From assembly GCF_058153355.1 (NCBI RefSeq), contig NZ_CM177019.1: 64,000 bases of DNA; one strand, written 5' to 3'. Below, one piece after another: positions 23,025 through 42,561 of this stretch. The notes below the pieces were generated by a model. It had not been told where the DNA came from, ran no database searches, and saw only the letters and a list, made by a program, of their open reading frames with translations. Both the position numbers and the translations under genes were made by a program. Every line of letters starts with the position of its first letter. Position 1 is the first letter of the stretch.

Positions 23025-24518
23025 TTAGCCCCAGGTTACCGCTTCCGGTTTATCACCTCTGGCTTTCATTAATGAATCATTATCAATATCGGCTTTATAC
23101 TTTAAGAACTTACCATACATTTGTTTTTCAATGTCTGGATTTTTACCTATCTGATTAATGGTCTCAAAACGATCGGTTTTGAGGTTGTATAAGTACTTTG
23201 GCTTATTGTTACGATCGATGATCATTTTCCAGTCACCATCACGTATCGCCCATTCGTCGGTTGGATCATCCTGGAATGGCATGTCAATTCCGAAGATTAA
23301 TGGCTTTTCACGTTTTAGCGCCTTGTTCTCAAGGACAGGAACCAACGATTCGCCATCAAAAGTGCGGTCCGTCGGTAATTTGAAGTTCATCATTTTCGCC
23401 AGCGTAGGCATCCAGTCCAGACCATAAACGGGAGTATCTGAAACCATTCCCTTTGGAAGATGCTTTCCGTATTTAATAATCGCCGGAACACGGATGCCGC
23501 CTTCCCAAAGATTATCCTTGCGACCACGTAATCCATCAGTTTCCCCTGCCAAATTCAGTTCATAAACTTTACGTGCTTCACGGGTTACTGGGCCGTTATC
23601 ACTGGTAAAAATAACGATGGTGTTATCTTCTTCACCCATCGCTTTGATTTTATCCAGTACTTTTCCAACCTGAGCATCCAGATAACTGATGTTGGCATAA
23701 TATTCTCCTGTACCACGCCAGGGTTTATCCGCCCAGTCGCCATAAAATAAATCAGGATGCTGCTTCTGATAGTCGCTCATATAATGTGAGTACATGTCGA
23801 GGTATTTTTTGGGCGAAGCCAGGGGACTGTGCACTTCGGTAAAAGCGACATAAAGGAAGAAAGGCTTACTATCCTTTTTGTTATCCAACCAGTTAACGAC
23901 TTCCGAACTGACATACTCACCACTCATTTTATCGGCACGAGGTGTGGGTTGCCCGTTACGCAACCAACCCGTCGGATACACCATACCAAAACGGGGACGC
24001 TCCTTCGCATTATCCAGAGTAGCGTCGGTAACAAAACCCGCCGTATTAACCAGTGAGTAATCAAAGCCCATATCTTTTGCCTGAGGCTGATCGGTACGAT
24101 CGCCGCCTGCATTCAGATGCAGCTTACCCATCATGGCCGTGTCATACCCTTGCGCTTTGAGTAGATTAGCAATCGTGAGTTCATTACGCCCTAATGCCAC
24201 ATCTTTTCCCGTTGGGATCCATGAACGTATGCCGGTACGAAATGGCATCCGCCCCGTTAATAACCCCGCTCGCGAAGGAGAACTTAAGGGAGCTGGTGCA
24301 TAGTAGTCAGTAAATTTGACCCCTTCCTGGGCAAGCCTGTCGATATTAGGTGTTTTAACGATCTGATGACCATATGTTGCTAAATCGCCATAACCTAAAT
24401 CATCCGCCATAATAATGACTAAATTAGGTTGTTTAGCCTCTGCGGCTAAGGCAGGACTAAAAGCATTCCCTGTGCAAACTGCAAGGCCGATCAAACTGGC
24501 CATTAACGTTTTCTGCAT
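23025..24518 (-). CDS. periplasmic Ser-type sulfatase (arylsulfatase family)
   Basis: 497 aa with signal peptide MQKTLMASLIGLAVCTGNAFSPALA; metal-binding MADDLGYGDL; formylglycine motif present as S-S-P-S-R-AGLLTGR (Ser in place of Cys). Confidence 0.8.
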   Translation of the reverse strand: MQKTLMASLIGLAVCTGNAFSPALAAEAKQPNLVIIMADDLGYGDLATYGHQIVKTPNIDRLAQEGVKFTDYYAPAPLSSPSRAGLLTGRMPFRTGIRSWIPTGKDVALGRNELTIANLLKAQGYDTAMMGKLHLNAGGDRTDQPQAKDMGFDYSLVNTAGFVTDATLDNAKERPRFGMVYPTGWLRNGQPTPRADKMSGEYVSSEVVNWLDNKKDSKPFFLYVAFTEVHSPLASPKKYLDMYSHYMSDYQKQHPDLFYGDWADKPWRGTGEYYANISYLDAQVGKVLDKIKAMGEEDNTIVIFTSDNGPVTREARKVYELNLAGETDGLRGRKDNLWEGGIRVPAIIKYGKHLPKGMVSDTPVYGLDWMPTLAKMMNFKLPTDRTFDGESLVPVLENKALKREKPLIFGIDMPFQDDPTDEWAIRDGDWKMIIDRNNKPKYLYNLKTDRFETINQIGKNPDIEKQMYGKFLKYKADIDNDSLMKARGDKPEAVTWG

Positions 24519-24538
24519 AATTATTCCCTGATAAAAAA

Positions 24539-25300
24539 TTAGAAATCATAACCAAGCATATAAATCATTTGATCGCCAAAGCCATCGTAGCCCAGCTTAT
24601 TATCGAAATAACGCCACGTCACACTGGCTTTCCAGCGAGGATAGAACTTCCAGGCAATAGTTAAACCGCCATTTAACCCGTTCCGGCCAAATTGCTGCTC
24701 CGTGTAAGCATCGTTCCTGTCCAGTTCTATTTCATTCCAGTTAGATAAAACAAATTTTTCGTCAAATAACATAAATGGCAATACTGCTGTCCAGCCAACA
24801 ACATAACCATTCCAACCATTCGTTTGACCATATTTAGCTGATACGTAGTCACCAGATTGATTATGTAATCCAATATACGGTTTAAAAAAGCCCCACTCGC
24901 CGTTCCAGCCGAGGTAACCGAATCCATAAAACATGTCCAGATCGTCACCCCATGAGTTATCCCATTGGCCATAAATTTTGCCAAAGAATGTCATATCAGA
25001 GTCAAAGAGTCTGACATGCGTCATTGCTGAAACCGTATGATTTCTCCCTGCTACAGCATGATTGAGTACATTACTTTCATAAAATGAGTAAAATTCTGCT
25101 TCTTTAAAATTTACCCCAAAATCCGCAGTCACTTTCCATACTTCACCACGGTGAGTGTTTACAAATCCACTATTCCAGTCTGCATAACCCGCATTTATTG
25201 AACCAAAGGTTCCTTTATATTCTAATGAAGAATATGCAGGAAAATGATAGATAGCTGTTATCAGGGTACACGCAATAAGAAGTCGTCTTTTGGCAGACAT
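24539..25300 (-). CDS. small outer-membrane beta-barrel channel, Tsx/OmpK-family-like
   Basis: 253 aa, signal peptide then a W/G/Y-rich sequence ending ...MIYMLGYDF (C-terminal aromatic typical of OM beta-barrels); 20 bp upstream of the sulfatase gene on the same strand (operon-like). Confidence 0.5.
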   Translation of the reverse strand: MSAKRRLLIACTLITAIYHFPAYSSLEYKGTFGSINAGYADWNSGFVNTHRGEVWKVTADFGVNFKEAEFYSFYESNVLNHAVAGRNHTVSAMTHVRLFDSDMTFFGKIYGQWDNSWGDDLDMFYGFGYLGWNGEWGFFKPYIGLHNQSGDYVSAKYGQTNGWNGYVVGWTAVLPFMLFDEKFVLSNWNEIELDRNDAYTEQQFGRNGLNGGLTIAWKFYPRWKASVTWRYFDNKLGYDGFGDQMIYMLGYDF

Positions 25301-25811
25301 ATAATATGTTCTCCATTCATTGTTTTTATGATTCCATAGGAATTAATACACCAGACAATTCATTTTTATTAAGAATGACCAGGACAGTATATTTAAAGAT
25401 GACTATCGAAGCGTGATGAAGATCGCAGATTACTTTTGCGAACGGGCGGAGAGATATCGTGTTTCAGAAAATGTGTCTGTTTTAAATATCACCCTTTGAT
25501 TTATAGGCATTTTTCATGATGAACTTAGCATTGACTGCTGAACGTATTTCTTTGTCTCTCTATAGTATTACACTAACCTTTAATAATTAATTTCCTTTAG
25601 CTATTCACTTTTGAAAGAGGAAAACACCTTTTTTTGTGAATCCCTGGATATATTTAAGTTAAATAAATTGATGTATTGAAATATTATTCCGTAAAAATGC
25701 GAGGCGTCTTCAGAAAAAGAATTGATAAAACAGAAGTGAATTAAAAGCGCTGTATAATAGCGGCGGGTGCTTGAGGCTATCTGTCTCAGGCATTAGCTGA
25801 ACGGCAGATAG

Positions 25812-25866
25812 AGAAAAGCCCCGAGTGATATTTTACCATCAACCCGAGGCCCCCTATATGCTGAAC
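25812..25866 (-). ncRNA. sokC: SokC antisense RNA (approximate position, placed from K-12 geometry)
   Basis: hok/sok loci encode a short antisense RNA overlapping the mok start; coordinates are inferred relative to the mokC start at 25858, not seen directly. Confidence 0.35.
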
Positions 25867-26067
25867 ACATGTAGAGTGCCTCTTACTGACCGTAAGGTCA
25901 AGGAGAAGAGAGCAATGAAGCAGCATAAGGCGATGATTGTCGCCCTGATCGTCATCTGTATCACCGCCGTAGTGGCGGCGCTGGTAACGAGAAAAGACCT
26001 CTGTGAGGTTCACATCCGAACTGGCCAGACGGAGGTTGCTGTTTTCACGGCTTACGAATCCGGGTAA
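25858..26067 (+). CDS. mokC: mokC, overlapping reading frame regulating hokC translation
   Basis: ORF MLNTCRVPLTDRKVKEKRAMKQHKAM... overlapping hokC in the same frame (track ORF 25825..26067 trimmed). Confidence 0.6.
   Translation: MLNTCRVPLTDRKVKEKRAMKQHKAMIVALIVICITAVVAALVTRKDLCEVHIRTGQTEVAVFTAYESG
25915..26067 (+). CDS. hokC: Hok/Gef-family small membrane toxin
   Basis: 50 aa, MKQHKAMIVALIVICITAVVAALVTRKDLCEVHIRTGQTEVAVFTAYESG, a near-exact Hok/Gef sequence. Confidence 0.85.
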   Translation: MKQHKAMIVALIVICITAVVAALVTRKDLCEVHIRTGQTEVAVFTAYESG

Positions 26068-26170
26068 GAGCAACGGCGGGGAGTGATCCCCGCCACTTTA
26101 CAGGTGCTCGCATATCTTCAACGCACCCTGTTTTTTACCTGGCCTGCCCACGGGCAGGCTTTTGGGGAGG

Positions 26171-27301
26171 TTAGCGAGTCAGGTCGTCGAAAAACTTCTT
26201 CACACCATCAAAGAAGCTCTTTGAACGCGGGCTGTTGTGCTCGCCGGTTGGGCCACCGAAGCTTTCCTGCAGCTCTTGCAGCAGCTGTTTCTGCTTCTCG
26301 TTCAGACCTACCGGTGTTTCGACGACAACGCGGCACAGCAAGTCACCTTGCGCACCGCCGCGAACAGACTTGACGCCTTTACCGCGCATACGGAACAGCT
26401 TACCGGTCTGGGTTTCGCCAGGCACTTTCAGTTTGACGCGACCATCAAGGGTCGGTACTTCGATTTCGCCACCCAGCGCTGCCATAGCGAAGTTGATCGG
26501 GACTTCGCAATACAGGTTGTTACCTTCACGCTCGAAAATCGGGTGCTGTTTAACCTGAACCTGAACGTACAGATCGCCTGCCGGTGCGCCATGCTCGCCC
26601 GCTTCACCTTCGCCCGCAAGACGGATGCGGTCTCCAGTGTCCACTCCTGCCGGGATTTTAACGGACAGCGTTTTGCTGCGCTCAACACGACCATGACCAT
26701 GACATTTGTTGCACGGATCTTTGATCAGCGTACCGCGGCCCTGACAGTGTGGACAGGTCTGCTGTACAGCGAAGAAGCCCTGGCGCATCTGCACCTGACC
26801 AGAGCCATGACAGGTCGGACAGGTCTGCGGCTGTGTACCTGGTTTTGCACCGCTACCGTGGCAAACGTCACACTCTTCCAGAGTCGGAATGCGGATCTCT
26901 TTGGTCACGCCACGTACAGCTTCTTCGAGGGTGAGCTCCATGTTATAGCGTAAATCAGCACCGCGCGCCGCACGTTGACGACCACGTCCGCCGCCAAAAA
27001 TATCGCCGAAAACGTCACCAAAAATATCGCTGAAGTCTGCGCCGCCGCCAAAACCGCCGCCGCCCATGCCGCCTTGCTCAAACGCAGCATGACCATACTG
27101 ATCGTATGCCGCACGTTTTTGCGAGTCGGTCAGAACTTCATAAGCTTCCTTGATCTCTTTAAATTTCGCCTCGGCCTCTTTGTCACCCTGGTTACGGTCC
27201 GGGTGGTATTTCATGGCCAGGCGTTTGTAGGCCTTTTTGATTTCACGCTCTTCCGCTGTTTTGGAAACGCCTAAAATCTCGTAATAATCTTGCTTAGCCA
27301 T
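26171..27301 (-). CDS. dnaJ: chaperone DnaJ (Hsp40)
   Basis: Track ORF trimmed to [40 protein letters not shown] (J domain); G/F-rich region and four CxxCxGxG zinc-finger repeats visible. Confidence 0.95.
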
Positions 27302-27389
27302 CTTTTTTGATTTGCCCCTAGATGAATGCACGGGCGGAGAGGAAATTCCCCTTCGCCCGTGTCAGTATAATTACCCGTTTATAGGGCGA

Positions 27390-42412: not shown

Positions 42413-42438
42413 GGTTGTTACCTCGTTACCTTTGGTCG

Positions 42439-42475
42439 AAAAAAAAGCCCGCACTGTCAGGTGCGGGCTTTTTTC
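42439..42475 (-). terminator. thr operon attenuator (rho-independent terminator)
   Basis: Minus strand reads AAGCCCGCACCTGACAGTGCGGGCTTTTTTTT between thrL and thrA. Confidence 0.85.
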
Positions 42476-42492
42476 TGTGTTTCCTGTACGCG

Positions 42493-42561
<69 letters not shown>

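Follow-up and report, generated by a model that had tools for sequence, protein, structure and literature searches.

An IS186-free hokC-mokC-sokC locus beside dnaJ in Escherichia coli with an intact toxin frame and a complete set of predicted hok regulatory elements

We analyzed a 64,000-nucleotide stretch of DNA (the window) and find that the region next to dnaJ is the E. coli chromosomal hokC-mokC-sokC type I toxin-antitoxin locus in its IS-free configuration. We assign this reading a probability of about 0.93. The toxin frame and every regulatory element of the published hok scheme are intact, and the pairings between these elements are recovered by RNA folding. The feature is real but already known, as the IS-free form was described in 1999.

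The hokC product was called a 50-aa Hok/Gef toxin in the initial annotation of this DNA, and the family search agrees: Pfam PF01848 (HOK_GEF) matches it with 85.5 bits (cut-off 22; E = 1.8e-24) over residues 6-47. The NCBIfam Hok-family models gave 48.5 bits, which is under their curated cut-off of 73. The mokC ATG at 25858 opens the hokC frame 57 nt upstream, and the two genes share one stop codon. An overlapping mok frame had been claimed. The mok ORF is present, but it is not a separate frame, since mokC is an in-frame extension of hokC, exactly as in the K-12 annotation (b0018 relative to b4412). The canonical mok frame of plasmid R1 differs from the hok frame, whereas mokC is in frame with hokC. 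The 69-aa MokC has an exact match in public databases, where it is named MokC of E. coli; RefSeq annotates mokC beside dnaJ in every neighbouring genome inspected, and annotated orthologues are present in thousands of genomes. The two genes hokC and dnaJ are convergent, with 103 bp between hokC and the dnaJ stop, close to the ~100 bp given previously.

Searching Rfam, we obtained a match to RF01794 at 25765-25917 on the plus strand (120.5 bits, gathering score 59, E = 4e-28) that covers the full model (1-157). This family carries the name 'sok antitoxin', yet the match lies on the hok-sense strand, from the mRNA +1 to the hok AUG; it thus marks the hok mRNA leader and not Sok itself. The initial annotation had begun the locus at 25812, which falls roughly at the SokC 3′ end (25808) and leaves out tac, a part of ucb and the promoter. 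The predicted transcription unit runs from ~25765, and the locus start should better be set at ~25753-25765. All features are collected in Table 1.

Table 1. Features of the hokC-mokC-sokC locus and its surroundings in the window, with the substitutions that distinguish its transcript from K-12.
Feature	Position	Strand	Description
426-aa protein	21651-22931	-	islet; IS1/IS1595-type zinc-binding domain
Sulfatase	23025-24518	-	islet
Tsx/OmpK-like porin	24539-25300	-	islet
hokC -10 box	25753-25758	+	TATAAT; read from sequence; conserved in K-12 and five other strains
Predicted full-length hokC mRNA	25765-26167	+	~403 nt; 5′ end from RF01794 start and R1 hok 5′-end alignment; 3′ end inferred from hairpin and UUUU
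tac (translational activator element)	25765-25776	+	GGGUGCUUGAGG; predicted to pair with fbi in full-length and with ucb in truncated RNA
Substitution	25779		window A, K-12 G; pair kept, A-U in place of G-U
SokC antisense RNA	25808-25866	-	59 nt; gap-free coordinate transfer from K-12 ncRNA sokC (b4413)
ucb (anti-SD of mok)	25816-25823	+	AAAGCCCCG region; predicted to pair with mok SD in full-length and with tac in truncated RNA
mok Shine-Dalgarno (SD)	25846-25849	+	GAGG; 8 nt upstream of mokC ATG
Sok-target hairpin, truncated mRNA	25846-25882	+	from truncated-mRNA folds; corresponds to third helix of Rfam consensus
Substitution	25852		window C, K-12 T; sole difference within SokC
mokC CDS	25858-26067	+	69 aa; in-frame N-terminal extension of hokC
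Putative sokC promoter	25873-25901	-	-35 TTGACC (25901-25896), 17-nt spacer, -10 CACTCT (25878-25873); identical to K-12
dcb (downstream complementary box)	25878-25882	+	GCCUC; predicted to pair with mok SD in truncated fold
hokC Shine-Dalgarno	25902-25905	+	GGAG; read from sequence; paired to 26059-26061 in all predicted folds
hokC CDS	25915-26067	+	153-nt ORF; 50-aa Hok/Gef toxin MKQHKAMIVALIVICITAVVAALVTRKDLCEVHIRTGQTEVAVFTAYESG
TACG motif at Tyr47	26053-26056	+	retained; known TadA A-to-I (Tyr to Cys) editing site
Substitution	26063		window G, K-12 A; yields HokC E50G
3′ stem-loop	26075-26094	+	GGCGGGGAGUGAUCCCCGCC; in every predicted fold; IS186 splits the hairpin in K-12
Empty IS186 target site	26080-26089		GGAGTGATCC; single copy; duplicated around IS186A in K-12
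fbi (fold-back inhibitory element)	26116-26128	+	CUUCAACGCACCC; predicted to pair with tac; downstream of K-12 IS186 site
Substitutions	26130, 26136, 26137, 26140		differ from K-12; between fbi and terminator
Terminator-like hairpin	26142-26163	+	GCCUGCC/GGCAGGC and UUUU; from sequence and fold
dnaJ stop	26171-26173	-	dnaK next after dnaJ

The orthologous hokC (gef)/mokC/sokC locus of K-12 MG1655 (b4412, b0018, b4413) likewise lies between nhaA and dnaJ. As previously noted, K-12 carries an IS186 copy between hokC and dnaJ, annotated there as IS186A. Reading the K-12 junctions, we find the order GGCGG-GGAGTGATCC-IS186-GGAGTGATCC-CCGCC, with a 10-bp duplication of the target. The element (1339 bp between the repeats) sits inside the 3′ stem-loop and parts fbi and the terminator from the mRNA, while nothing is cut off in the window. 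Here, the target sequence occurs once and is followed by unbroken sequence up to dnaJ, which identifies it as an empty site; the earlier description of an uninterrupted locus is thereby borne out. The interrupted K-12 type has IS186 between the hokC stop and fbi, an interval that holds no IS186 in the window.

The K-12 comparison sequence was made by removing IS186A and one copy of the target repeat, with the cuts placed at the inverted-repeat/TSD junctions. This IS-excised sequence aligned to the window without a gap from the promoter to dnaJ. The transcript differs from it by 7 substitutions, none of which breaks a frame or a regulatory pairing. The K-12 HokC shares 49 of the 50 residues of the window toxin, and mokC, the SokC region and the putative Sok promoter of K-12 are the same as here except for the one base at 25852. 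Further differences from K-12 are a distinct haplotype at 25665-25752 and a 4-kb islet in place of 81 bp. Alignment with the K-12 and R1 loci, the check that the initial annotation had proposed, turned up no inactivating mutation in the toxin frame or the regulatory elements: the Sok promoter region equals that of K-12, and the tac, ucb, dcb and fbi pairings are all predicted with a probability of at least 0.93.

We also checked how common the two configurations are among 5426 complete E. coli genomes, counting matches at 80% query coverage or more. The uninterrupted junction (171-bp query from the hokC stop to dnaJ) was present in 3814 of these genomes (~70%), and the K-12 hokC/IS186 junction query in 1279. 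IS-free hokC is the majority state and K-12 is a minority type.

The regulatory elements (tac, ucb, dcb, fbi and mok SD) were defined after PMC9841398, in which the R1 mok SD is the same GAGG motif. All RNA structures described here are thermodynamic predictions. The full-length hokC RNA (25765-26167) folds with an MFE of -170.2 kcal/mol (z = -6.18 versus shuffles). In this fold, tac is predicted to pair with fbi across ~350 nt by 12 pairs (probability 0.93-0.99) with one bulge at 26122, the mok SD with ucb (25818-25823; 0.96-0.98), and the mok start codon region with 26102-26115. When the RNA was truncated to 25765-26115 or 25765-26100, tac moved to ucb (0.96-1.0) and the mok SD to dcb (0.99-1.0). 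This modelled closed-to-open refolding would reproduce the R1 hok model. As controls, an equivalent 5′-3′ pairing was predicted for the R1-type hok/sok locus of an IncFII plasmid, while the IS-interrupted transcript of K-12 was predicted to be permanently in the open form.

The loop CUGAACA (25861-25867) of the predicted Sok-target hairpin is complementary to nt 1-6 at the 5′ end of SokC. The start of this loop, CUGA (25861-25864), fits the YUNR U-turn pattern. In a single R1/hokC comparison, we noticed one compensatory tac/fbi difference, with C3-G in R1 and U4-A in hokC. Covariation across hok paralogues was reportedly described by Gultyaev and colleagues in 1997. By analogy with R1 (PMC9841398), the 3′ stem-loop is expected to form the last, protective hairpin once the mRNA is processed.

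In the alignment, the R1 hok mRNA +1 falls 7 nt downstream of the hokC -10 box, and we found no recognizable -35 box in the hokC promoter. A weak promoter is in keeping with R1 hok. SokC lies antisense across the mok translation start and is putative, assigned by its sequence identity with K-12 bar the one base at 25852. It folds at -23.1 kcal/mol (z = -4.95) into a predicted 9-nt single-stranded 5′ tail, a hairpin and a U-rich tail. The -10 box of its putative promoter is a poor match. Performing a consensus scan of both strands over 25500-26300, we obtained no call for a sigma-70-type promoter, neither that of hokC nor that of sokC. A terminator scan did not call the hairpin at 26142-26163 either, because its tail has four U only. 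With these scans negative, we assigned the promoters and the terminator by homology and position.

From the R1 hok/sok model and the folds computed here, we infer the following mechanism. The weak promoter would give an mRNA of roughly 400 nt. In the closed form, the 5′ tac would sit on the 3′ fbi, with ucb holding the mok Shine-Dalgarno; thus, neither MokC nor HokC would be made and SokC would be unable to bind. Slow exonucleolytic trimming of the 3′ end would take off fbi, after which a tac/ucb stem would form at the 5′ end and the mok SD region would join dcb in the target hairpin. When SokC is present, this antisense RNA would bind the open form and the mRNA would be destroyed, in the hok/sok scheme by RNase III acting on the Sok duplex. 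When SokC is depleted, translation from mok would instead yield the membrane toxin HokC. TadA editing at Tyr47 could recode this residue from Tyr to Cys.

Among the known systems, the hok/mok/sok (parB) locus of R1 encodes a Hok of the same family, 40% identical to the window HokC. The order of its elements is the same as here (tac, ucb, mok SD, dcb, hok, 3′ stem-loop, fbi and terminator), and R1 Sok is antisense to the mok start, as the putative SokC would be. The R1 locus is plasmid-borne while hokC is chromosomal, and the -10 box of sokC (CACTCT) is weaker than that of R1 sok (TATCCT). R1 brings about post-segregational killing, which IS-free hokC reportedly does not, going by a preprint (10.1101/2025.08.07.668861). 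The chromosomal paralogue hokB/sokB of E. coli shares with hokC the TadA Tyr-to-Cys editing within a TACG motif (PMC5630033, PMC12214031). In hokB, the editing affects position 29, reaches a high level and is linked to persistence. In comparison, the editing in hokC falls on the other cysteine position (aligned position 46; Tyr47 in HokC numbering) and is low in K-12, at ~9% (PMC5630033, PMC12214031).

Upstream of the locus, a 4,010-bp islet (21637-25646) stands in place of 81 bp of the K-12 nhaA-hokC spacer. The initial annotation had the sulfatase insert bordering the hok/sok regulatory region, and we locate its right edge at 25646/25647; the predicted mRNA 5′ end follows 118 bp downstream. 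The islet was detected in 918 complete E. coli genomes by a hokC-proximal flank query and in 1269 by a 12-kb query (~17-23%, about a fifth). The ~90 bp at 25665-25752, which lie between the islet and the -10 box and extend right to the latter, show 24 differences from K-12. This haplotype is not unique to the strain, being found in Rb-50 and WL297 as well, while K-12, NRZ14408 and O18 have the other haplotype from ~25714 onward, with a third sequence further upstream in O18.

Several other features of the surroundings were recorded. An ISSso6 element (20037-21554) lies between nhaA and the islet; its transposase ORF (20114-21289, plus strand) matches the NCBIfam IS110-family RNA-guided transposase with 273.7 bits. 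The same insertion site is occupied, without the islet, in E. coli CFSAN029787, RMDEC364 and VL46, which fits site-specific targeting. Directly abutting the left end of ISSso6 is a tandem duplication of ~208-212 bp (19617-19828 and 19825-20036), comprising the nhaA 5′ end (first 55 nt) and a 157-bp upstream region. CFSAN029787 has the same IS insertion without the duplication, which could be IS-associated or an assembly artefact. The fimbrial genes beside nhaR (15302-17502), with a 409-aa usher-like ORF, look fragmentary, and RefSeq marks the usher found at this place in CFSAN029787 as a partial pseudogene. The extra IS and the fragmentary usher gene had suggested a Shigella origin for the window; against it, the exact HokC and MokC proteins are catalogued under E. 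coli, and the strain CFSAN029787 with the same ISSso6 insertion is an E. coli. Other Rfam matches at the gathering level, all on the minus strand, were the tpke11 sRNA in the dnaK-dnaJ spacer (27302-27379), the threonine operon leader (42438-42557) and the ES003 sRNA (2734-2786).

The above observations raise the question of whether an intact locus is also a working one. The initial annotation had suggested that hokC may be fully functional. Its intactness holds in silico; full functionality goes beyond the evidence, and published results on ECOR24 argue against R1-style killing. According to PMC3562002 and a 2026 preprint (10.1101/2025.08.07.668861), both relaying Pedersen & Gerdes 1999, the hokC (gef) copy of K-12 carries IS186, thought to disrupt fbi, and ECOR24 hokC is IS-free. 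As far as this published description goes, ECOR24 hokC resembles the window in lacking IS186 and retaining its own 3′ end with fbi; the window hokC carries E50G in addition to this configuration. The preprint (10.1101/2025.08.07.668861), summarising Pedersen & Gerdes 1999, states that the IS-free hokC of ECOR24 gave no post-segregational killing and no activation by rifampicin. Thus, a killing cycle of the R1 type may stop short of completion at hokC.

We consider the odds even that an intact structure here goes with physiological silence, the locus being a conserved relic, transcribed but kept repressed, that never kills. The ECOR24 result is what such a relic would give; moreover, hokC is regarded as inactive in the papers that report its limited editing in K-12 (PMC5630033, PMC12214031), and our consensus scan called no promoters. 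Yet the cis elements are all conserved, with the correct pairings predicted for each, and HokC is toxic when overexpressed, according to the preprint (10.1101/2025.08.07.668861). From the mRNA start to the hokC stop, six strains differ at few positions, against the 24 differences from K-12 in the block just upstream. A near-invariant transcript beside a divergent upstream block suggests, at the level of sequence comparison, purifying selection on the transcript. That hokC, being intact, works in this lineage as an active toxin under conditional triggering, and not as a silent relic, seems very improbable to us nonetheless. Its own upstream haplotype, its rare R1-like C-terminus (E50G) and its closeness (103 bp) to the heat-shock operon dnaKJ, with which it converges, could alter how hokC behaves.

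A cryptic, strain-specific inactivating change (E50G, the C at 25852 or the changes at 26130-26140) that leaves the window copy no more functional than that of K-12 is, in our estimate, highly unlikely. HokC ends in YESE in all of the six strains compared, in an alignment that leaves out O157:H7, and in YESG in the window. The exact protein (WP_201794702.1, catalogued as E. coli MokC) is a rare allele found on a handful of contigs only, some islet-positive and some islet-negative; this rarity, together with the placement of the 26130 and 26136-26140 changes between fbi and the terminator, is what such an inactivation could draw on. However, Gly50 aligns with Gly51 of R1 Hok (YESGK), so there is no reason to expect a loss of activity. 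The C at 25852 and the variants at 26130-26140 are common to the natural strains Rb-50, WL297 and O18, the predicted pairings are undisturbed, and the frame and the start codons are intact.

On other E. coli contigs that encode HokC with Gly50, either an IS1 InsA gene follows hokC directly (L009, 7204-7479) or the contig breaks off right at the hokC stop (L010, L012 and L013). The hokC 3′ flank looks like a recurrent IS target, beyond IS186 alone.

A chance origin of the ORF and the structures in intergenic DNA, for which the small size of the ORF and nothing further would speak, is refuted by the Pfam (E = 1.8e-24) and Rfam (E = 4e-28) matches, the full-length fold (z = -6.18) and the thousands of mokC orthologues.

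For the IS-free locus as we read it, two consequences could follow if hokC is active. We found no canonical terminator facing dnaJ between hokC and dnaKJ. Read-through from dnaKJ, being antisense to fbi, could open the mRNA and tie the release of HokC to heat shock. Alternatively, the locus could help to retain the adjacent sulfatase/OmpK islet. At hokC, K-12 is the exception; therefore, conclusions on hokC derived from K-12 concern a disrupted allele. In the window, each of the published hok regulatory elements can be assigned cleanly to its bases, and the sequence may serve as a template for work on the role of an undisrupted chromosomal hok locus.
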